The notes under the pieces were generated by a model. The model was not told the DNA's origin. It ran no database searches and worked only from the letters and a program-made list of their open reading frames with translations. From positions 1-42,895 of the forward strand of contig SCUN01000054.1 in the NCBI GenBank assembly GCA_004297655.1: a DNA stretch of 42,895 bases. The letters run 5' to 3'. This document shows, in pieces, positions 2,805-17,271 of the stretch; positions within the stretch are counted from its first letter, which is position 1, and each line of letters begins with the position of its first letter. A program made the position numbers and the translations under genes. The stretch comes from Acidobacteriota bacterium. GTDB lineage: Bacteria; Acidobacteriota; Vicinamibacteria; Vicinamibacterales; SCN-69-37.

Positions 2805-5430
2805 CGCGAAGCGTTCGCGCGGGATCGAGCTTCATCGCGCGGACGGCCGGCGCCGCAACGGCGAGGATAGACACGGCCAGTACCGTGAGCGTCACCACTA
2901 TTAATGTGGCGGGATCGTGGGGGCTCACGCCGTAGAGCACGGGCGCGGCGAGCTGCCCGATCACCAGACCGAGCAGCAGTCCGGCGCCGGCGCCAATGGC
3001 CGTGACCTTGAGTCCGTCCGACAGGACCATCCGGCGAATGCCCGACGGATCCGCGCCGAGCGCCATCCGCACGCCGATTTCGCGGGTGCGCTGACCAACC
3101 GAATAGGAAATCACGCCATACAGGCCGCCGGCGGCGAGCGTCAGCGCGAGCACCGCGAATCCGATGAAGAGGCCGTTGATGATCGTCGTGCTCGACATCT
3201 CATCGCGTTCGATGTCTTTCACCGTTCGCAGGTTGGAGATCGGCACCGCGCTATCGAGCCGCCGCATTACCGCGCGCAGATCCGGCGTTCGATCGGCCGG
3301 CGTCGAGGCGCGAACGAGCGCCGTCATGTCCGCCCTGGGCCACTGCGCGAACGGCACATAGACCTGCGGACTGGTGACGGTGATGTTCGGCGCGCGCGTG
3401 TCGGCGGCCACACCGACGACGGTCACGGCCCGCTTCGGTTCGTTGCGGCCTGCGAGCGTCACCTGCCGGCCGATCGCCGGCGCCGCGCCGCCGAAGTACT
3501 TGTCGGCCGCCGTGCGATTGATGATCGCCACGGGTTGCGAAGCCGCCGCATCGGCGGCGCCAAAGCCGCGGCCGCCGACGATGTTGACGCCGGCGGTGCG
3601 GAAGTAACCGGGCGTCACCGCGTACCACGACGCCCACGGCACGTCGTTGTCGCGGCCGCCGAGCGCGAGTCCCTCGATCTGCCGCGTCACTTCGCCATCG
3701 AATACCGGGAGGTGACTGATCACCGCGGCGGCGCTGATGCCGCCGACTTCGGACAACGCCTGCGACAGCGACGCCGCGAATCGCGCGCGCGCTTCGTCGG
3801 TCGCGTAGCGATCGGCGGGCAACTCGAAGCGGAAGGTGGCCATCTCGTCCACGGCGATGCCGGTGTCGATGCGATTGAGGAAGAGCATCGATTGAACCGC
3901 CAGCGTCGAGACCACGAGCAGCGAGAGCGCCAGCGCGACCTGGCCGGCCACGAGGATGCTGCGGCGCCGCTTCGACCCGCGGCTTCCGCTGGTTCGGCTG
4001 TCCCGCAAGGTCTCGGCGCTCGTGGACCGGCCGGCCGAGAGCGCCGGCAGCAGGCAGAAGATCAGCGGCGTCACGAATGAGATCGCCGCGACGAAGACGA
4101 GCACGTAGCCGTCGATCGCGATCGTCTTCATGAACGGCTCGTAGGCAACGGCGTTGATCGTCTTCAGGCCCGCATGCGCGAAGCCGAGGCCGAGCGCGCC
4201 GCCGGCGAGGCTCAGCACCAGGCTCTCGGCCATCATCGGCCGAACCAGCTGCGCGCGCGAGGCGCCCAACGCCTGTCGCACGGCCAGATCCACGCGTCTC
4301 GACACGAGCCGCGCCATCACGAGATTCGCCAGGTTGGCGCACGCAATCAGCAGCACGAAGCCGACGACGATCGCGAGGAGCAGGAGGATGAGCCAGGTGT
4401 CGTTCGATGTCATCGCCGTGCGGGTCGATACCGCGCCGGCGGTCCAGTCGTGATGCGTGGCCGGATACGAAGCCGCCCACTGGCGGCTGAGACCTTCGAC
4501 TTCCGCGTTGGCGGACGCGATCGTGGCGCCCGGCGCAAGCCGGCCGAGCACGCGCAGCGTGCGGGCATCGCGGGCGCCGTTCGGGTCCACCGGCATCGGC
4601 GTCCACATGTCGATCAGAGACAAGTTGCCGAGCTCGAGGTCCGACGGCATCACGCCGACGACCGTCAGCGGCTTGCCGTTCAGGAGAAGTTGCCGGCCGA
4701 TGACCGACGGATCCGATTGGAAACGGTCCTTCCAATAATGATTGGCGAGCACGGCTGCGATCGGTTGGCCCGGCTCGCCGTCCTGCGGTTGGAACAGCCG
4801 GCCGATCACGGGCCGCATCCCCCACACGTCAGTGAGATTCGCGGTTCCCCGAATGATGGTGACGCGCTCCGGATCCTGCTGGTGGCCGGTGAGCGTCGCC
4901 GACGCGTTCTCGTAGCCGGCAACTGCTGTGAAGCTCTTCGCGCGTTCGCGCAGGTCGACGAGATCCGGCATCGACAACTGGCCGCGGTCGATCTGCCGCG
5001 GCGCATTGAGCGATCGCACCCATCCAAGCCCGTCAGGGTTCGCGATCGGCAGCGGGCGCACGACCAGCGGACTGGCGAGGCTGAAGAGCAGCGTGTTCGC
5101 GCCGATCGCCAGCGCGAGCGTGAGAATGGCGATCGCGCTGTATCCCGGCGACCGGCGCACGGTGCGACCCGCGAGACGAAGATCATTCAATAGGCTGTTC
5201 ATCGTTGTTCCAAAAGTAAGGCCGACTGGTTCCGAAGTCGGCCAGGCCCGCCGCCGCGAAAGATGCCACGCCCCCGCAATCGCCTGACGCCAGTACGCTC
5301 TCCACGCACGCCACCGCCCGCGCGTCTGATCGCGGACAAAGCGCTCATCGAGATCGCCGAGCAGCGATTCGCGGAGCGGCTCCGCCACGAACATCGCGAC
5401 GACGAGCGCCGCCATGCGTGGAGGTTTCAC
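2797..5430 (-). CDS. ADOP-family duplicated FtsX/MacB-type ABC permease (no ATPase partner adjacent)
   Basis: 877 aa. It has two MacB_PCD + FtsX-like halves, each with four TM segments, and the N-terminal prefix ESLLGDLDERF. The start is GTG 5430 or ATG 5415. Confidence 0.9.
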   Translation of the reverse strand: MKPPRMAALVVAMFVAEPLRESLLGDLDERFVRDQTRGRWRAWRAYWRQAIAGAWHLSRRRAWPTSEPVGLTFGTTMNSLLNDLRLAGRTVRRSPGYSAIAILTLALAIGANTLLFSLASPLVVRPLPIANPDGLGWVRSLNAPRQIDRGQLSMPDLVDLRERAKSFTAVAGYENASATLTGHQQDPERVTIIRGTANLTDVWGMRPVIGRLFQPQDGEPGQPIAAVLANHYWKDRFQSDPSVIGRQLLLNGKPLTVVGVMPSDLELGNLSLIDMWTPMPVDPNGARDARTLRVLGRLAPGATIASANAEVEGLSRQWAASYPATHHDWTAGAVSTRTAMTSNDTWLILLLLAIVVGFVLLIACANLANLVMARLVSRRVDLAVRQALGASRAQLVRPMMAESLVLSLAGGALGLGFAHAGLKTINAVAYEPFMKTIAIDGYVLVFVAAISFVTPLIFCLLPALSAGRSTSAETLRDSRTSGSRGSKRRRSILVAGQVALALSLLVVSTLAVQSMLFLNRIDTGIAVDEMATFRFELPADRYATDEARARFAASLSQALSEVGGISAAAVISHLPVFDGEVTRQIEGLALGGRDNDVPWASWYAVTPGYFRTAGVNIVGGRGFGAADAAASQPVAIINRTAADKYFGGAAPAIGRQVTLAGRNEPKRAVTVVGVAADTRAPNITVTSPQVYVPFAQWPRADMTALVRASTPADRTPDLRAVMRRLDSAVPISNLRTVKDIERDEMSSTTIINGLFIGFAVLALTLAAGGLYGVISYSVGQRTREIGVRMALGADPSGIRRMVLSDGLKVTAIGAGAGLLLGLVIGQLAAPVLYGVSPHDPATLIVVTLTVLAVSILAVAAPAVRAMKLDPARTLRGD

Positions 5431-10132: not shown

Positions 10133-10207
10133 TCCGAAATACTAGTACCGAAATGGACATCTATGCGAGGCCCCCCGGGCGTAGGCTCGTGCTAGCCTAG
10201 GCTTCCT

Positions 10208-11260
10208 TTGAGCACAGCTCCCCAATTCGCCACCCCCGCCGTCTTCAAGCATGTTCTCGAAAAACGGGTTGAAGGGTTCCTGGCCAACCGCCGGACCACC
10301 GACAGTCCGTTGATGTACGCCAAGGCCATCGGCCTCTTCGCGGCCTCGGCCCTGTCCTACTACTTTCTGGTCTTTCGGACCGATTCGATCTGGGCGGCGC
10401 TCGCGTGGGGCTTCGTCCTGGCGATGGCGCTCGTGGGCATCGGCTTCAACGTGCAGCACGACGGCAATCACGGGGGCTTCTCGCGCTACAAGTGGGTCAA
10501 TCGGTCCGCGGGCTTCACGCTGGATCTGATCGGCGCCAGCTCGTACTTCTGGGCCGATAAGCACAACCACAACCATCACGTGTACACGAACATCCCGCAC
10601 GAGGATGCCGACATCAACCTCGGCCCGCTCGCGCGGCTCAGCGAAGAGCATCGCTGGCTCTGGTTCCATCGCTTCCAGCACATCTATCTCTGGGCGCTCT
10701 ACGCGTTCGTGCATCTCCGGTATCTCTTCACCGACCTGCACCGCATGTCGGGCCTCAAGAAGGACGGGCTGACGGAGAACTACCCGAGGGGCTGGGATCT
10801 CGTCGCGATGATCGCCGGCAAGGTCATCTTCCTGACGTTCGCGTTCGCGATCCCGCTGACGCAGCACTCGTTCGGCCGTGTGGCCGGCATCTACGTCCTC
10901 GTCTCGATGGCGATGGGCATCGTCTTCAGCACCGTCTTCCAGCTGGCGCACACCGTGGACAACGTCGAGCACCCGCTGCGCGGCGCGACCGATCACAACG
11001 AGTGGGTCATCCATCAGATCCGGACGACGGCGAATTTCGCACCGCGGAACTGGTTCCTGACGTTCACGCTCGGCGGCTTGAACTTCCAGCGCGAGCATCA
11101 TCTCTTCCCGAAGATCTCGCACGTCCACTACCCGGCGATCTCGAAAGTCGTTCGCGCGGTCTGTCAGGAATACAAAGTGGATTACTGCGAAAGCCCGTCG
11201 GTCTGGGAAGCGATCCGCTCGCACTATCGCTTCGTAAAAGCGATGGGCGCCAAACCGTAG
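10208..11260 (+). CDS. Membrane fatty-acid desaturase, front-end (DesD-like) type without a cytochrome b5 domain
   Basis: 350 aa. His boxes are HDGNH, HNHNHH and QREHHLFP. A Q-x-x-H-H third box is the hallmark of front-end/delta-6-type desaturases. The start is TTG. Confidence 0.85.
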   Translation: MSTAPQFATPAVFKHVLEKRVEGFLANRRTTDSPLMYAKAIGLFAASALSYYFLVFRTDSIWAALAWGFVLAMALVGIGFNVQHDGNHGGFSRYKWVNRSAGFTLDLIGASSYFWADKHNHNHHVYTNIPHEDADINLGPLARLSEEHRWLWFHRFQHIYLWALYAFVHLRYLFTDLHRMSGLKKDGLTENYPRGWDLVAMIAGKVIFLTFAFAIPLTQHSFGRVAGIYVLVSMAMGIVFSTVFQLAHTVDNVEHPLRGATDHNEWVIHQIRTTANFAPRNWFLTFTLGGLNFQREHHLFPKISHVHYPAISKVVRAVCQEYKVDYCESPSVWEAIRSHYRFVKAMGAKP

Positions 11261-11313
11261 GGGGACGGACCCCTTTTCCACAACTTTTCAACAGTTGGGG
11301 ACAGGTCTCGGGC

Positions 11314-11781
11314 CTATCGAGTCCGCCGCTGTCGCATTACTTCATACACAGCGAGAGCAACGCTAGTTGACAGATTGAGCGACCGCACGTGTTCGGAGAG
11401 GATCGGTATCTTCACCAAGCGGTCGTTGTATTTCTCGCGCACTTCGCTCGGAAGCCCGCCCGTCTCTCGCCCGAAGATCAGAACAGCATCCTCCGACTCG
11501 CCAAGTGGCGCGTCCCACAACTCGCGCGTCGCCTTCGTCGAGAAGAACCACGGCTCGCCGAGCGCGGGCAGCGCTCGTTCGAACGCGCCCCAATCGGGCC
11601 AGACACGCAGATCGACGTGCTCCCAGTAGTCGAGTCCCGCGCGCTTGACCTGGCGATCGTCGAGCGAGAAGCCGAGCGGTTCGACCAGATGCAGCGTGGC
11701 GCCCACCGCCAGGCACGTTCTGCCGGCGTTGCCGGTGTTCCAGTGAATCTCGGGATGGACGAGGACGACGTGGATCGCCAC
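11314..11781 (-). CDS. trmL: tRNA (cytidine/uridine-2'-O)-methyltransferase, SpoU/TrmL family
   Basis: 155 aa: IHVVLV.PEI..NTGN.GRTC...LHLV.PLGF...KRAGLDYW......LIFG.E..GLP......IP.....RSLNLS.SVA is TrmL-like. Confidence 0.88.
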   Translation of the reverse strand: MAIHVVLVHPEIHWNTGNAGRTCLAVGATLHLVEPLGFSLDDRQVKRAGLDYWEHVDLRVWPDWGAFERALPALGEPWFFSTKATRELWDAPLGESEDAVLIFGRETGGLPSEVREKYNDRLVKIPILSEHVRSLNLSTSVALAVYEVMRQRRTR

Positions 11782-12287
11782 TAGCTGCGGCCGGGGCGAA
11801 CGATGCCATAGATCAGGAGCCGTTTGCCGCCTTCGGCCTCTTCGCGCTCGAGCGCGGCGCCGAGCCGTTCGGCGATCCTGATCGATCGGACGTTATCCGC
11901 GTGAATCACGCACGCAATGTGTCGCTGATCGAGTTCGTCGAATGCATGAGCGACGAGCGCGCGAGTGCCTTCGAGCGCGTACCCCTTGCCCCACGCCGAT
12001 CGCGCGAGCGCCCAGCCCAGCTCGAACCCGCGGCCGCCTTCAGGATTCAGGAAGCCCATGTGCCCGATCACATCGCCGGACGACTGCTCCACCGCCGCGA
12101 AGATGCCGTAGCCGCGCAAGTGCCAGTGCCCGACGTATCTCGCGATGTTCCACCACGCCTGCGCGCGCGAGAGCGCGCCGTCGTGAATGTAGCGCATGAC
12201 CTCGGGATCCGACGTGATCCGCGCGTGCGCTTCGAAATCGTCGGCGGTGATCGGGCGGAGGCGCAGCCGCCCCGTGTCTATCTCCAA
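11781..12287 (-). CDS. GNAT N-acetyltransferase (RimJ/RimL-like, Acetyltransf_3)
   Basis: 168 aa: TGRLRLRPITADDFEAH....DPEVMRY......GFELGWAL....WGKGYALEG. TTG start at 12287 with AAGGAG (12296-12301) 8 nt upstream. The stop overlaps the trmL start by 1 nt. Confidence 0.85.
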   Translation of the reverse strand: MEIDTGRLRLRPITADDFEAHARITSDPEVMRYIHDGALSRAQAWWNIARYVGHWHLRGYGIFAAVEQSSGDVIGHMGFLNPEGGRGFELGWALARSAWGKGYALEGTRALVAHAFDELDQRHIACVIHADNVRSIRIAERLGAALEREEAEGGKRLLIYGIVRPGRS

Positions 12288-12302
12288 AACTGAAACTCCT
12301 TC
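12206..12302. repeat. Copy A of a 97-bp direct duplication (active GNAT 5' end plus dead DUF2164 tail)
   Basis: Aligns without gaps to 12884-12980 with 86/97 identities by my own count. Confidence 0.85.
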
Positions 12303-12415
12303 ATCACAAGCGGCGCCGAACTTCCACGCAACTGGGCTCCCGCCGATCGTCGCGCCGATACAGGCTGGGCACCCAGCCGCGTGGATGCCGCCGCAGCGGC
12401 TCCAATCAGCCCTCG

Positions 12416-12784
12416 CTATTCACTCGTCTTTCTGGCCGGAAACGCTTTCGCGACGATGGCTCCCGCGAGAGGGCCGACGCAGCCGGCCAACAACAGCGGG
12501 AGGCCCTGGTTAAGAATCACCTCGCGACTCTCAAACACAACGTTGGCGACAAATCCCAAGGATAAGGGCGCCGCCATGCCGAGTAACGTCGCAAGGTTGG
12601 AGCGGAGGCCAATTCCCTTAGCGGCAACGAGTAACTGGCAAACCCCAAGGTATACGCCCATGATGACAAACGTCATCGGTGGAGTCGGGCTGCGAGCTGC
12701 TCCCAGAATCCCGTCCGAAAGTGTGCCCACCCCAAGCGCAGAAACCCCCAGAGCGAAAGCGAGGCCAACTCTCTTGACGTCCAT
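12416..12784 (-). CDS. Small hydrophobic membrane protein (about 4 TM), atypical codon usage
   Basis: 122 aa: GLAFALGVSALGV...FVIMGVYLGVCQLLVAA...LLGMAAPLSLGFVANVV...LLLAGCVGPLAGAIVA. It has many T/A-ending codons (gtt, ctt, tta, ttg, gga), unlike its neighbours. It lies between the two copies of the 97-bp duplication. Confidence 0.55.
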   Translation of the reverse strand: MDVKRVGLAFALGVSALGVGTLSDGILGAARSPTPPMTFVIMGVYLGVCQLLVAAKGIGLRSNLATLLGMAAPLSLGFVANVVFESREVILNQGLPLLLAGCVGPLAGAIVAKAFPARKTSE

Positions 12785-12883
12785 GAGCGCTCCTAATTCC
12801 GAACGAGGGTCGTCAATCCGCTGGGAGCAAGTCCCAGATTGGCCCGAGGTTACACCGAATCAGGGCACCCACGGCCAGAGAAT

Positions 12884-12965
12884 GATCCGATGTGATCCGC
12901 GCGGGCGCCTCGAAGTCGTCCGCTGTGATCGGTCGAAGACGCAGCCGCCCGGTGTCTATCTCCAA
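12884..12965 (-). pseudogene. 5' fragment (27 codons) of a GNAT acetyltransferase gene, homologous to 12206-12287
   Basis: It translates as (M)EIDTGRLRLRPITADDFEAPARITSD and then diverges into unrelated sequence. It differs from the live gene at 10 positions, 9 of them synonymous third-codon positions. Confidence 0.7.
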
Positions 12966-12980
12966 AACTGGAACTCCTTC
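12884..12980. repeat. Copy B of the 97-bp direct duplication (live DUF2164 3' end plus GNAT 5' fragment)
   Basis: See copy A. The offset is exactly 678 bp. Confidence 0.85.
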
Positions 12981-13201
12981 TCGTAGCACGAGCCTTCGAG
13001 GTCCAGCACGCGGTCGTGGAAGTACTTCTGCGCGTCGGAGATGGCCTTGTTGTAGATGCTCGGCCCGATCTCTCTCAAGCAGAACTCCATGACCAGCCGG
13101 GCCTTGAGGTCGCCGATGTCCTCGTCGAGATGTTCCGCGAAGAAGCGTTTGATGGACGCGTGAAGGTCCTTCGTCGTGTCAGGCGCAAGCTGGATGGCCA
13201 T
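12956..13201 (-). CDS. DUF2164-like small protein
   Basis: 81 aa: IKRFFAEHLDEDIGDLKARLVMEFCLREIGPSIYNKAISDAQKYF resembles the DUF2164 family from memory. GC3 is host-like. Confidence 0.7.
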   Translation of the reverse strand: MAIQLAPDTTKDLHASIKRFFAEHLDEDIGDLKARLVMEFCLREIGPSIYNKAISDAQKYFHDRVLDLEGSCYEKEFQFWR

Positions 13202-13233
13202 GGCCCGATTTCATCACAGCCGGCGCCGCACCG

Positions 13234-13728
13234 CTAACGCTGCACGCGTCTCCGGATTTCGGTCGCGTTCACGCGTCCAAAGAACTCGGGCGCGATGATC
13301 CACGCCGCGCGCATGAAGAACAGTAATCCAGTCTGCATGAGCGCGTACGGCGCCACGAACAGCAGCAAGGCGAAACCGGCCGCGGACGGCTGCGTCGGGT
13401 CGAACGATACCTTGAAGTACACGAGCAAACCATAGACGCTGACGCCAACAATAATGCCGAGCAAATACCACATCGTCGCCTGCATCGAGCGCTCGGCGGC
13501 ATAGAGCGACCGTGTCTGGCCCTCGCCGTCCGGGAGCGCGCGGCCGCGGCTGTAGAGCAGCCCGGTGAAGCTGAAGAACACCACCAGGATCGGCACGCAG
13601 AGCGCCGCCAGCGGTTTGAAGTCGAAGTGGTAGATGTGATGCAGCATCACCACGAAGAACACGAACGCCGCGCTCACCTCGAGTGCGATGAAGGCGATCC
13701 GAGCGGTCCGTCTGCTGCCGGCCGGCAT
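13234..13728 (-). CDS. Hypothetical integral membrane protein (4 TM)
   Basis: 164 aa, hydrophobic segments, good GC3 bias. No family recognised. Confidence 0.6.
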   Translation of the reverse strand: MPAGSRRTARIAFIALEVSAAFVFFVVMLHHIYHFDFKPLAALCVPILVVFFSFTGLLYSRGRALPDGEGQTRSLYAAERSMQATMWYLLGIIVGVSVYGLLVYFKVSFDPTQPSAAGFALLLFVAPYALMQTGLLFFMRAAWIIAPEFFGRVNATEIRRRVQR

Positions 13729-13769
13729 GATCCGCGCATCCTAATACAGGGCGCGCTCGGCTGGGCGTT

Positions 13770-14126
13770 TCACTTCGCCGGCTTGATCTCGATGCTGACG
13801 ATGTGGAGGGGTGCGGTGCCGACGTTTTCGAGAGTGTGGGGCCCCAGCGCCTCTCCCCACAAGACGGCTCCCTGCACCGCCGTCACGCCTGCGGTTCGTG
13901 TGTCGAGCAGCACGACGCCCTTGTCGTCCCGGCGGACAAACGCGCTCCAACTCATGACATGGTGCGCGGCCGGCCATTGGTGCGTGTGAACCGGCGTCCG
14001 TTCGCCCGGCGCGATCCGGGTGTCCAACACGCGGACGCGTTCGTTCTCGAGGACCAGACGGTGCTGTGCGGGCGCGGCCGAAAGTGCGTCCAGTTCTGCG
14101 GGCCAGGCCGAGGGGTCGTCCATCAA
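13770..14126 (-). CDS. Cupin-fold small protein
   Basis: 118 aa: VRVLDTRIAPGERTPVHTHQWP...GPHTLENVG..PLHIVSIE looks like a single cupin barrel with His ligands. Confidence 0.6.
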   Translation of the reverse strand: MMDDPSAWPAELDALSAAPAQHRLVLENERVRVLDTRIAPGERTPVHTHQWPAAHHVMSWSAFVRRDDKGVVLLDTRTAGVTAVQGAVLWGEALGPHTLENVGTAPLHIVSIEIKPAK

Positions 14127-14130
14127 TGCC

Positions 14131-14757
14131 TCAGCGAGCCGCGGCCTCCGCGACCGTCGGCAAGTGCTGCTGGTACAGCTTCACGAGCGAGATCTCGGCT
14201 GATTGAATGTCGGCGATCGTCAGCCAAAGCAATCGCACGACGGCAGGACGCTTGGCGGGGTCATATGTGGCGGCATCGGCCAAAGGGCCATTAGCTAGCC
14301 GCTGAACATTCGCCGTCACCTGATCCTGCGCCGTGTAAACGTCGGCGAGCGCGGACGCGACATTGAAATCAATCAGCCGCACGGCGCCGCTCGACACGGC
14401 GGCGTCCCATGCGCTTCGGCGCAGCGTCGGGAACGGCGTCGGGCTTTTTCCGAGATCCGGGCGTGTCCTGAACCAGACGTCGAGTCCGGACTCGGACGCT
14501 CTCGAGGTATCGGCGGTATCCAGCGCTCGGCGCCACTCAGAGTGAATCGAGATGTACGGCTCCAGGGCGGCGAAGTTGTGATCGATCTCGGCCTTGATGC
14601 CGCTGAGCACCTGGTGCTTCAGTTCACGATTGGCCCTGGCGTCGCGGTACTCGTCAACGCCGAACGCCAGCAGGACGCTGACGACGATAAGCAGGCCTTC
14701 GAGCAGCCAGTTGACGAGCTGCTTGCCGCGCCCGGCTTCCGATCCGCCCGATGTCAT
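14131..14757 (-). CDS. Hypothetical protein with an N-terminal TM anchor
   Basis: 208 aa. TM segment LLEGLLIVVSVLLAFGV followed by a soluble domain. The gap to the next gene is 4 nt. No family recognised. Confidence 0.55.
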   Translation of the reverse strand: MTSGGSEAGRGKQLVNWLLEGLLIVVSVLLAFGVDEYRDARANRELKHQVLSGIKAEIDHNFAALEPYISIHSEWRRALDTADTSRASESGLDVWFRTRPDLGKSPTPFPTLRRSAWDAAVSSGAVRLIDFNVASALADVYTAQDQVTANVQRLANGPLADAATYDPAKRPAVVRLLWLTIADIQSAEISLVKLYQQHLPTVAEAAAR

Positions 14758-14766
14758 CGGCGCATC

Positions 14767-15339
14767 CTAATACATGGACGCTCGCCGCGTCCGTGCCTCC
14801 GCGGCTCGCCGGATTGCGGGAAGGAGAAACCAACGGATGGGCAAGATCCCGAGCCGGGCCCAGCGCCAATAGGCCTTGAAGCGGACTTGTGTTTGCGAGT
14901 CGGTTGCCGCCGCTCGCGTCTCGGTTCGCAGCACACACGTGTGTTCGGTGACAGGATCGACTTCCAGCGTCCACGCGATCTTGACGTAGCCCGGCTCACG
15001 AAACAGCGGAAAAGTCTGGGCGTCGAGGGGAGTGAAGTGGACATCCGCCAACCAGGGCTGGCAAAACGCTCCTGCGACGAAGAGGTGATCGGGCTCGAGC
15101 GCCAGCTGGCCCCAGCCAAAGGCGGGAAGTTCGGTGAGGATGCCGAGAGATGGCGGCCGAGGATTACGGGACCGGAGCAGGAGTTCGCGGAGACGGAAGA
15201 TGGCCCGGATCGGCCACAGCGATTGGAGGTCGAAAGCGGCGGCGGTCGCGAAGGTGAGAGCGGCTGGAGCCTGGACCCGCACCTCGAAGTGCTCGCGGGC
15301 GTCAAAGATGGGCAGAAAGGGATCGAGTGGACTGGACAT
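14767..15339 (-). CDS. Hypothetical protein, possibly SRPBCC-like ligand-binding fold
   Basis: 190 aa. The pattern F.P.FDARE...V.AP......GWG.L...P......GAFCQPW......TETR.......RF.AYWR resembles SRPBCC/DUF-type proteins. The assignment is weak. Confidence 0.45.
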   Translation of the reverse strand: MSSPLDPFLPIFDAREHFEVRVQAPAALTFATAAAFDLQSLWPIRAIFRLRELLLRSRNPRPPSLGILTELPAFGWGQLALEPDHLFVAGAFCQPWLADVHFTPLDAQTFPLFREPGYVKIAWTLEVDPVTEHTCVLRTETRAAATDSQTQVRFKAYWRWARLGILPIRWFLLPAIRRAAEARTRRASMY

Positions 15340-15417
15340 AGATCAGTGAGAATCAGTGGCTAGCGCCGAGCAAATCCCACATCACCCTCACAGATCACGA
15401 TGCCACAGACGGTGGGA

Positions 15418-16236
15418 TCACCGTTGAACAGCAACGACGTGCGCCTGGATTTTGCCATCCACGACGCCTCGGCCAAACCGCTGTGAAATCGCGGCAGCGC
15501 CGGCGTCCGTGACTTCGGCCAGCCGGGACGCGTCGCGCGCCTCGATTTCGTTTCGGAGCGGTGTGCCCTGGCAATAGGCCATGGCGACCGCTTCGGCAGA
15601 GCTGGCCCGGCTGCGTGCCGCCACTGTGACGATCTCCGGCGGAGCGGCGAACCCGCCGCCTCCGAGGTCTCGCTCGATGGCCGCCCGGTCGTGGTAGCCG
15701 TGCGGGGTGCGCGCCAGGAAGCGAGGCGGATCGTCCGGAAACAGCGGCTCGAGCGCGGCGGTGACGACATCCGCAAATTCGTTCTCTCTAATGTGATCCC
15801 ACACGTTGAAGATGAACACGCCGCCGGGTCTGAGAACTCGGCGCGCCTCCGCAAACGCCGCGGCCTTGTCCGGGAAGAACATGGCGCCGAATTGGCATAC
15901 GACTGCGTCAAACGTCTGGTCCTCAAACGGCAAGTGCATGGCGTCTGCCTGACGCCACTCCACCGGCCGCTGCAGTCCGAGCGTCATCGCGTGGTCGAGC
16001 ATCGCCTGATTCAAATCCGTCGCCACGATCGCGACGTGATCAGGCAACCTGGAGGCCAGAGCGCGTGTGAGGACGCCGGTGCCAGCGGCAATTTCGAGAA
16101 CCCGGGCCGGGGATCGCGATGCGAGCCGAGCCGCCAGATCCGTCGCGTAGGGCTCGAAGATCAGCGGAACGAGGTATGTCTCGTAAAGACTCGGAATCGA
16201 ACCGGCGAAGAGTTTGTCGGAATCAGGGCGGTTCAT
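15418..16236 (-). CDS. Class I SAM-dependent methyltransferase (Methyltransf_11/UbiE-like) with a C-terminal extra domain
   Basis: Motif I VLEIAAGTGVLT, motif post-I VATDLN, FDAVVCQFG, LRPGGVFIFNVW. It starts 9 nt after the stop of the FAD subunit gene. Confidence 0.85.
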   Translation of the reverse strand: MNRPDSDKLFAGSIPSLYETYLVPLIFEPYATDLAARLASRSPARVLEIAAGTGVLTRALASRLPDHVAIVATDLNQAMLDHAMTLGLQRPVEWRQADAMHLPFEDQTFDAVVCQFGAMFFPDKAAAFAEARRVLRPGGVFIFNVWDHIRENEFADVVTAALEPLFPDDPPRFLARTPHGYHDRAAIERDLGGGGFAAPPEIVTVAARSRASSAEAVAMAYCQGTPLRNEIEARDASRLAEVTDAGAAAISQRFGRGVVDGKIQAHVVAVQR

Positions 16237-16245
16237 GATGTGAGG

Positions 16246-17271
16246 TCAGAGTATCTGCCTCGCCAGACTCAACCGCTTCGCGCGCATGTCGTCGCCGCGG
16301 GCTTCGCGAAGGGCGCTCGTCACGAGCGACTTGACCATCTTCTTCCGCCAGACGAGCTCGAAGTCGGTGTTGTCCATCGGCTTCGCGATGTCGTACGCCG
16401 CGGCGGCCGCGGCGGCGATCGCCTCATCAGTCAACTTCTGGCCGATCAGGAGCGCTGACGCTTTCTCCGAAAGGAGCGGCCGCGAGGCGACGGCGCCGAG
16501 CGCGATGCGGGCGTGTTCGACGACGCCGCCGTCCAATTTGAGCGCGATGGCCGCGGCGCCCACGGGAAAGTCGAAACTGCCGCGGCGGCGCAGCTTCCAG
16601 TACGAGGTCGTCCACCCTCGCAGATTCGGCAACGACACAGACGTCAGCAGCTCGTCGGCCCGCTTCGTGAGATACGACATGCCGTCGTTGTTGTAGAAGT
16701 CATCCACGGCGACATCGCGCGAACCCGAGGCCGACACGAGCGTGACCTTCGCGCCGAGCGCGAGGAGCATCGGCGCGGTGTCGGTCGACGAGACGGCGAG
16801 ACACCGCTTGCTTGACGTCGCCACCCAGCACGTCGAGCCGTCCTTCTTCATGCAGTACCCGATCGCCTTGCGCCACTCCTCGGACTGGTCGTAATAGGTG
16901 CAGCGCGTATCGAGGCACAGATTGCCGCCGATCGTGGCCATGTTCCGAAGATGCGGCGTCGCGACCTGCGCGGCGGCCTGCCAGAGACCGCGCACATTCT
17001 TCTGCAGCAGCTCATCCCCCACCAGCGTCGAGAGCGTCGTCCCCGCGCCGATGATGCGTGAGCCGCCGGGGCCGGGCATCATGACGGCCAGCTCGCGAAT
17101 GCCGCGAAGGCCGACGAGCGTCTTCGGCTTCCACTGCCCGCGCTTCATGTTCGGCAGCACATCCGTGCCGCCCGCCACGATCATCATCGTCTCCGGCGAC
17201 TGGCCGAGAATGTCGACGGCTTCTTCGACGGACGCGGGCGCGTAGTACTTGAAAGATGGAAGGCGGAGCAT
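16246..17271 (-). CDS. FAD-binding (medium) subunit of a xanthine dehydrogenase-family molybdoenzyme, with a Cys-rich insertion (HcrB-like)
   Basis: 341 aa: AGGTDVLP, ATIGGNL (FAD_binding_5), CO_deh_flav_C-like C-terminus. The insertion after GGNL reads C-LDTR-C-x15-C-x7-C-x8-C (Cys119/124/140/148/157). Confidence 0.88.
   Translation of the reverse strand: MLRLPSFKYYAPASVEEAVDILGQSPETMMIVAGGTDVLPNMKRGQWKPKTLVGLRGIRELAVMMPGPGGSRIIGAGTTLSTLVGDELLQKNVRGLWQAAAQVATPHLRNMATIGGNLCLDTRCTYYDQSEEWRKAIGYCMKKDGSTCWVATSSKRCLAVSSTDTAPMLLALGAKVTLVSASGSRDVAVDDFYNNDGMSYLTKRADELLTSVSLPNLRGWTTSYWKLRRRGSFDFPVGAAAIALKLDGGVVEHARIALGAVASRPLLSEKASALLIGQKLTDEAIAAAAAAAYDIAKPMDNTDFELVWRKKMVKSLVTSALREARGDDMRAKRLSLARQIL

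Follow-up and report, generated by a model that had tools for sequence, protein, structure and literature searches.

One recognized but still poorly understood way of gaining genes is insertion with long target duplication, in which direct repeats of more than 30 bp bracket an insert of less than 20 kb that has no mobility genes, and in which a related genome carries the empty site (Furuta, Abe & Kobayashi 2010, NAR 38:2428, PMC2853133). That study concerned restriction-modification (RM) genes, mostly of naturally competent species, and identified no enzyme; as cited there, the earlier source of the term is Nobusato et al. 2000 (Gene 259:99, ref. 37 of PMC2853133). Here, we describe a further example from an uncultured soil Acidobacteriota bacterium, on a stretch of 42,895 nucleotides (contig SCUN01000054.1 of assembly GCA_004297655.1; hereafter the window). 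In this case, a gene for a small membrane protein, m122, is inserted into an operon between two diverged copies of the junction of its neighbouring genes, DUF2164 and GNAT, and leaves both of these flanking genes intact. The host genome is a metagenome-assembled genome (MAG) of 2.79 Mb in 362 contigs (82% complete; the window is contig C121), and its closest named relatives are Thermoanaerobaculia of the Acidobacteriota.

The locus agrees with the described insertions in repeat length (46 to ~420 bp in PMC2853133, 97 to ~350 bp here), insert size, the lack of a transposase or integrase, and the occurrence of a related genome with a single repeat copy and no insert. Additionally, the identity of the left and right repeats can be below 100% in the published cases, for example 384/412 (PMC2853133). 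The differences lie in the cargo and in the repeats. RM genes, which are not found here, were a screening rather than a mechanistic criterion in that study, whereas the present cargo is a membrane-protein gene apparently drawn from the integron-cassette pool. Moreover, the repeats are 11% diverged with a synonymous pattern resembling that of orthologues, and they span an overlapping stop/start junction so that both genes remain intact. A first-pass annotation of this DNA, made from the sequence alone, had called the insertion mechanism unexplained, although this architecture had already been described under the above name.

Elements with surrogate gene ends, such as e14 and phage 21 at icd of E. 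coli, and islands at tRNA 3' ends, also resemble the locus, because the target gene is regenerated from an element-borne copy and the displaced piece persists as a diverged direct repeat with mostly synonymous changes. However, these elements possess their own site-specific integrase and measure several kb or more, while the present insert has 562 nt, one cargo open reading frame (ORF), and no recombinase.

Two processes linked to DNA uptake are comparable as well. In Streptococcus pneumoniae, exogenous single-stranded DNA bridging sister chromatids during transformation has been shown experimentally to make duplications (Johnston et al. 2013, PLoS Genet, PMC3784515), and homology-facilitated illegitimate recombination is referred to de Vries & Wackernagel 2002 and Prudhomme et al. 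2002, as cited in PMC3784515. Merodiploidy by transformation shares with the origin proposed below a homology anchor at one end of exogenous linear DNA and the presence of donor DNA at the new joint, but its duplications extend over 100-900 kb between insertion sequence (IS) repeats, in contrast to the 97 to ~350 nt found here. In homology-facilitated illegitimate recombination the other end is joined illegitimately with little or no microhomology, as may also have happened here, but the products are insertion-deletions, whereas the target is duplicated at our locus. Finally, a recombination unit has been reported that extends from the 3' end of one ORF through the spacer into the 5' end of the following ORF (Tsuru & Kobayashi 2008, MBE, PMC2568036). 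As here, the conserved and exchanged unit is a gene junction rather than a gene, although that unit was shuffled among tandem lpl paralogues via a conserved central region and no foreign gene was inserted.

Divergence and extent of the duplicated gene junction

All genes around the insertion are encoded on the minus strand in the order m164, DUF2164, m122, GNAT, and SpoU (Table 1). The full arrangement consists of m164, a leader, DUF2164, a dead GNAT start (GNAT', codons 1-27), the 562-nt insert (12883-12322), a second leader (leader'), a DUF2164 copy lacking 232 nt, GNAT, and SpoU. The two copies of the junction repeat, A and B, were aligned without gaps at 86 of 97 identical positions; the ends of the alignment are sharp, and no exact match within it exceeds 19 nt. 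This alignment reproduced the repeat of the first-pass annotation, in which the DUF2164 part had correctly been read as live only in copy B and the GNAT part as live only in copy A. The list of differences was also the same, with ten of eleven being synonymous: the single difference in the DUF2164 tail (TTT/TTC) and nine of the ten in the GNAT frame, all nine at third positions, while the tenth is a His/Pro replacement.

The comparison of copy A with copy B by Nei-Gojobori counting gave a dS of 0.63, a dN of 0.018, and an omega of ~0.03, and the probability that at least nine of ten changes would be synonymous under neutrality was 6e-5. The dS between the intact GNAT of the window and the GNAT of a related metagenomic locus (L031) was 0.51, close to the value between the two copies. 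The copies thus differ as functional orthologues do, so that one of them came from another lineage or from an old homologue. These results indicate that copies A and B were functional genes while they diverged, either in separate lineages or as paralogues kept for a long time, and were joined afterwards, and this substitution pattern argues firmly for excluding neutral decay of the dead copy in place. The same conclusion about the dead fragment had been drawn in the first-pass annotation, and the orthologue-like omega and dS bear it out. The dead GNAT', read from its TTG at 12965, continues for 50 codons to a stop at 12813, which lies 28 nt before the ATG of m122.

Copy A, copy B, L031, and another related locus, L032, were about equidistant. 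Derived states were found on both copies (ACA, GAG, and CCC in B; GAT and TTT in A), and the derived His21Pro is present only in the dead copy B. The GC content at third codon positions (GC3) was 23/27 in copy A and 20/27 in copy B, which is not a meaningful difference. No second GNAT start, DUF2164, or insert flank was detected elsewhere in the MAG.

The duplicated unit is larger than the 97-nt repeat. Leader', located just 5' of copy A, matches the leader that lies 8 nt upstream of the DUF2164 ATG at 19 of 22 positions, a score reached by none of 100,000 random genomic 22-mers compared with the DUF2164 upstream region. The leader, GGCGGCGCYGCTGTGATGAA, precedes DUF2164 or a DUF2164 remnant in L031 and in a further relative, L033. 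Based on this match, the duplicated unit comprises the leader, DUF2164, and GNAT codons 1-27, and the true insert covers 12322-12883 (562 nt). Leader' abuts copy A via a 3-nt GAA overlap, a microhomology that marks a 232-nt deletion of the DUF2164 body in the downstream copy. DUF2164 proteins share a conserved tail, EKEFQFWR, which makes the one in copy A a genuine remnant of the gene. The stop codon of the mini-ORF created at the deletion joint overlaps the TTG start of GNAT (12287-12285), as the DUF2164 stop does natively, and the mini-ORF may be translated. The first-pass annotation had recognized the 97-bp repeat but had taken it as the whole unit, missing leader' and the DUF2164 deletion.

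Related loci carry an empty site. The comparators are other species rather than sister strains (71-90% amino acid identity for GNAT; 75% for DUF2164 in L034). In L034, which is more distant, DUF2164, GNAT, and SpoU follow each other uninterrupted and share the same overlapping junction, TTTTGGA(A/G)ATA(A/G), in line with the earlier assumption that lineages with this junction exist. L031 (ENA ERZ13693045 NODE_53916), which is 86-90% identical at the nucleotide level to positions 10155-16500 of the window, retains the leader followed by the DUF2164 ATG, which is joined in frame to GNAT, and contains no DUF2164 body, insert, or SpoU. In L032, m164 is directly followed by GNAT, and in L033 the leader and DUF2164 are followed by an unrelated gene. 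Where both edges were readable, as at the deletion within m164, the joints in L031 showed 2-3 nt of microhomology. From these comparisons, the locus appears to be a hot spot of gene-sized rearrangement, and the independent DUF2164 deletion allele in L031 makes a deleted DUF2164 in a donor plausible. As a separate observation, four clean gene-sized gains or losses distinguish L031 from the window: 367 nt inside m164, the DUF2164 body, all of SpoU, and 2.5 kb at 13754-16247.

None of 80 other metagenomic DUF2164 loci had an adjoining GNAT, and none of four Acidobacteriota GNAT loci had an adjacent DUF2164. The five other species of the genus yielded no GNAT, and none of 25 relatives searched had more than one copy of this GNAT subfamily. 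The DUF2164-GNAT module is therefore accessory and lineage-specific rather than a conserved system. The two genes of this pair (11781-13201) overlap by 10 nt, resembling a coupled two-gene module.

Table 1. Features of the insertion locus in the window and copies of the genus-specific element in other genomes of the genus
Feature	Coordinates	Strand	Description
m164	13728-13234	-	164-aa membrane protein
Native DUF2164 leader	13210..13231	-	GTGCGGCGCCGGCTGTGATGAA, conserved in relatives L031 and L033
DUF2164 gene, intact	12956..13201	-	81 aa
Copy B, junction repeat	12884..12980	-	live DUF2164 tail, GAAGGAG ribosome-binding site, dead GNAT' start (codons 1-27, derived His21Pro)
22 nt between copy B and genus-specific element	12862..12883	-	left edge is the single illegitimate joint TCGGATC/ATTCTC
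Genus-specific single-copy hairpin element	12795..12861	-	within 5' flank of insert
m122 ribosome-binding site and ORF	12412..12793	-	ORF 12416-12784, 122 aa
3' flank of m122	12322..12411	-	long imperfect hairpin
Leader'	12300..12321	-	second copy (19/22) of the conserved leader preceding DUF2164
Mini-ORF MKEFQFWR (stop)	12278..12304	-	9 codons, made by the deletion joint
Copy A, junction repeat	12206..12302	-	dead DUF2164 tail (last 7 codons and stop), GAAGGAG ribosome-binding site, live GNAT codons 1-27
GNAT gene, intact	11781..12287	-	Acetyltransf_3, RimJ/RimL-like, 168 aa, TTG start
SpoU/TrmL-like methyltransferase	11781-11314	-	gene after GNAT
Genus-specific element, genome G004	C11:29575-29617 (L203 1276-1318)		
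Genus-specific element, genome G003	C48:17741-17807 (L204 1242-1308)		

The cargo gene m122 and its flanks

The product of m122 has 122 amino acids with four predicted hydrophobic helices, and its structure model was of low confidence (pLDDT 50). Relatives at 63-78% identity were found in only four clusters among 5.8e9 proteins, and the gene was not found in 70 other genomes of the family. No match was obtained in Pfam, NCBIfam, PADLOC, or PHROGs, and a profile search yielded 65 remote relatives, none of them with a Pfam domain. The dN/dS values between m122 and its homologues ranged from 0.17 to 0.31, which indicates that m122 is a real gene under purifying selection. The homologues sit in unrelated gene contexts, and the insert DNA is homologous to the loci L015, L023, and L024-L026 only over the ribosome-binding site (RBS) and ORF (12793-12412), at 75-85% nucleotide identity. 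No promoter-like or terminator-like site was found in or beside the insert. Two candidate kin of m122, namely m164 and the gene after the genus-specific element in genome G004, were rejected on comparison.

The GC3 of m122 was 0.67, compared with 0.78-0.88 in the neighbouring genes and a genome median of 0.85, so that it ranks among roughly the lowest 1% of putative genes. The unusually low GC3 noted in the first-pass annotation was thus real, but its attribution to a donor lineage of lower GC3 was not supported. In the window, L015, L023, and L024, m122 has a GC3 of 0.63-0.68, and the truncated homologue of L026 has 0.78, so that the low value is a property of the gene and not of a low-GC donor; furthermore, the GC3 of copy B is like that of copy A, and part of the 5' flank is native to the genus.

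In two metagenomic loci, m122 occurs next to attC sites of integron cassettes. In L015, it directly follows an attC site at 1200-1269 with an R'' box GGCTAAC paired with an R' box GTTAGGC (z = -5.25). L023 contains two attC sites whose R'' box equals that of L015; a PIN toxin pair lies between them, and m122 comes after the second site. The leaders of m122 in L015 and L023 are homologous from the R' core onward (score of 75 versus a shuffle mean of 13.5). These sites show that m122 has been an integron cassette, being attC-bounded in both loci, a history that the first-pass annotation had missed in its account of the cargo. L015 and L023 are both high-GC metagenome contigs with cassette arrays holding m122; the attC site of L015 comes after an HNH-endonuclease-like cassette, and those of L023 (JGI 3300036760) are located at 97-218 and ~989-1065.

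The attC sites were sought with a strict regular expression, which gave no match, and then with a relaxed fold-constrained scan, a home-made and crude procedure rather than the IntegronFinder model, which detected attC in L015 and L023 and none near the window insert. Integron integrases scoring above the curated cut-off (TIGR02249) were present in 19 of 71 family genomes, one of them of the same genus. In the 82%-complete MAG no integron integrase was found, the only integrase-family matches being two Xer-like genes on other contigs. Like integron cassettes, the insert carries a single ORF of ~0.5 kb with no promoter, which in other genomes is bounded by attC, and integrases are common in the family, but the window differs in having no attC, no G/TTRRRY start, and no integron integrase (IntI), and in the duplication of the target, which IntI does not produce. 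On this evidence, the insert in its present form does not appear to be an integron insertion.

The 3' flank of m122 forms a hairpin (z = -3.3) without an AAC (R'') box; its only similar motif is an R'-like GTTCGGC, which fits GTTRRRY at six of seven positions. No relatives of this flank were found, and a match to a coding region of genome G021 (47/62) was weak and judged to be due to chance. The 5' flank has no canonical G/TTRRRY cassette start. An impression that it represents the L015/L023 cassette leader, based on a shared ATTCTC, was rejected by a shuffle test (score of 15 versus a mean of 13.8), and the flanks of the window were not significantly similar to the cassette leader or to the cassette 3' region. 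Neither insert flank contained a trace of m164 or SpoU, and no Rfam match was found in the insert or in the homologue loci.

The 5' flank also contains a genus-specific element (12861-12795), GATYCGGTGTAACCTCKGGCCRATCNGGGASTTGCT, which measures 45-67 nt and was found as a single copy only in the window and in genomes G004 and G003, at 86% and 76% identity, respectively. It folds into a hairpin with two compensatory pairs and lies 10-60 nt upstream of three unrelated ORFs. Its presence in the 5' flank implies that the insert is a mosaic that was already resident earlier in a genome of the genus. G003 and G004 additionally share a second block of 39 nt that ends in GTT(A/C)GGC and is followed by divergence, which looks like an attI- or attC-type boundary.

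Proposed origin and rival explanations

We consider it somewhat more likely than not (probability of roughly 0.55) that the locus arose by insertion with long target duplication, when two versions of one accessory locus that had diverged from each other recombined. Its anatomy, the orthologue-like divergence of the two copies, the past of m122 as a cassette, and the empty site of related loci are observed; the donor arrangement, the order of events, the identity of the incoming copy, and the route of DNA entry are inferred. The donor would have been a related species of the same genus carrying, in this order, the genus-specific element, m122, the hairpin, leader', a DUF2164 that was deleted then or later, and GNAT'. 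It would have taken m122 from the integron-cassette pool at an earlier time, with subsequent loss of attC. The recipient chromosome would have had m164, the leader, DUF2164, GNAT, and SpoU. One homologous exchange in or after the 5' region of GNAT and one illegitimate joint connecting GNAT codon 27 to the 5' end of the insert (TCGGATC/ATTCTC), with room for at most 1-2 nt of microhomology, would then have produced the present structure, and because these two joints are in crossed order, the target would be duplicated and not replaced. Crossed joints could be formed with a circular or permuted donor (a Campbell-type single crossover) or by a donor strand bridging sister chromatids. As an outcome, DUF2164 would keep its own end, GNAT would keep a complete start, an RBS, and an overlapping upstream stop, and the promoterless m122 would be placed in a co-directional operon.

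Two versions of this recombination between diverged alleles fit the data equally well. In one, the original native start is copy B, and copy A with leader' came with the insert as a substitute start; in the other, a crossover occurred between repeat positions 10 and 30 and all dead pieces would be donor-derived. His21Pro in copy B fits either version. A switch at repeat positions 10-30 is compatible with TTT in A and TTC in B followed by a reverse GC3 trend, a signal that rests on a single site. The first-pass annotation had likewise let the cassette arrive by recombination with a related lineage. The orthologue-like divergence agrees with this part of the claim, but either copy may be the incoming one, copy B with its derived His21Pro being equally consistent with an old native stub. 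Its further statement that no transposase, integrase, or terminal inverted repeats are present was confirmed, as none was found in or beside the insert, which contains one ORF.

Several points weigh against this proposal. The donor arrangement, with m122 beside leader', occurred in no collection searched, and none of the DUF2164 and GNAT loci retrieved from genomic or metagenomic data had m122 next to the junction. The insertion is a single case in the MAG, in which a genome-wide scan found no second one. The locus was read from an assembled contig of a fragmented MAG. The distance matrix is nearly star-shaped, and 97 + 22 nt are too few to determine the direction of transfer or the crossover point. 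In those bacteria for which this has been examined, sequences diverged by 11% recombine homologously with low efficiency. Homologues of ComEC and DprA are present but non-discriminating, as most control genomes have both.

Divergence confined to synonymous sites could also have arisen without recombination between species, if two full and functional DUF2164-GNAT modules, pointing the same way and separated by m122 and further DNA, had once been present and had both been subject to purifying selection. One deletion would have joined the upstream GNAT at its codon 27 to DNA just upstream of m122, and a second would have removed the downstream DUF2164, leaving exactly one live copy of each gene, as observed; illegitimate deletions with 2-3 nt of microhomology are indeed frequent at this locus. 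Such a history of old paralogues seems unlikely to us, since no relative has two modules (L031, L032, L033, and L034 have one each), five other species of the genus lack GNAT, and no searched genome holds two copies of the subfamily. In addition, the long upkeep of two redundant accessory modules that are 89% identical (dS 0.63) is not expected, and m122 is foreign by both composition and distribution. An in-place tandem duplication with neutral decay of the dead copy and later insertion of m122 would leave direct repeats around the insert as its expected remains, but it is hardly credible, because a dead stub of 27 codons would change at all codon positions, in contrast to the nine of ten synonymous changes (P = 6e-5), and because the 97 nt contain no indels and no stops at 11% divergence.

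The fragmented state of the MAG (362 contigs, 82% complete) and a copy divergence equal to that between co-occurring related species would be compatible with an assembly artefact, that is, a chimeric contig of two co-occurring strains or species whose copies were never on one molecule. We regard this as quite unlikely. The longest shared exact run is 19 nt, so the copies could not be joined via a k-mer of at least 21, and both novel joints (between copy B and the 5' flank, and between the 3' flank and leader') are unique sequence that must exist in the reads. If the assembly had changed strains within m122, one genome would nonetheless have a truncated GNAT' start upstream of m122 and the other would have m122 upstream of leader'-GNAT, and the bin holds no alternative contig for the region. 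It is very unlikely, too, that IntI placed the m122 cassette at a secondary site with the duplication as a by-product. The attC-bounded homologues, the frequency of IntI in the family, the long hairpin of the 3' flank, and the joint of this flank with leader' (G/TTCGGC, fitting GTTRRRY at 6/7) speak for such an event. Nevertheless, the 3' flank has no R'' (AAC) box, the 5' flank shows neither a TTRRRY start nor homology to the cassette leader, the MAG at 82% completeness yielded no IntI, and IntI recombination does not duplicate ~100-350 nt of target.

Other nearby repeats in the MAG are REP/RAYT elements, a duplicated attachment site at a tRNA, and long palindromes on either side of a VapBC pair. 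Long palindromic repeats at C293:3488-3656 and 4325-4492 bracket a VapB/VapC-like toxin-antitoxin pair, in a unit that resembles a cassette with unusual ends rather than canonical attC, and the repeats at C355:99-183 and 545-629 are of the same type (85-169 nt, 86-89% identical in these two contigs). Paired perfect hairpins of ~50 nt were found at C201:1940-2723, C227:2277-2850, and C144:3799-5087. Those of C201 and C144 bracket a gene for 222-239 amino acids with an HV(I/M)NRG motif and are REP/RAYT-type units, whereas the ORF bracketed in C227 (~150 amino acids) does not have this motif. An 85-nt direct repeat with 99% identity (C211:7736-7820 and 10923-11007) surrounds a 3.1-kb segment; by eye it seems to include a tRNA 3' end, and it looks like a classical island at a tRNA gene.

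Implications for gene gain in operons

The locus provides a natural example in which a long target duplication around an insert is datable and traceable by its substitution pattern. It also links integron cassettes with general recombination, two fields that are mostly dealt with separately, because a gene that is a cassette elsewhere is found here without attC in an operon, apparently by way of general recombination. As a tentative and still doubtful generalization, junction duplications may mark a recombinase-independent way of gene gain, in which small cargo, such as genes of the cassette pool, is fixed beside a copy of a host gene end and spreads among related species by homologous recombination, as pre-loaded alleles that bring a replacement gene start. 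If this is true, operons could take up promoterless genes without losing either neighbour. Should the pattern prove frequent, it would help to explain the gain of single promoterless genes in the compact operons of uncultured bacteria without the machinery of mobile elements, and diverged gene-end stubs could serve as a practical marker of recent gene gain.

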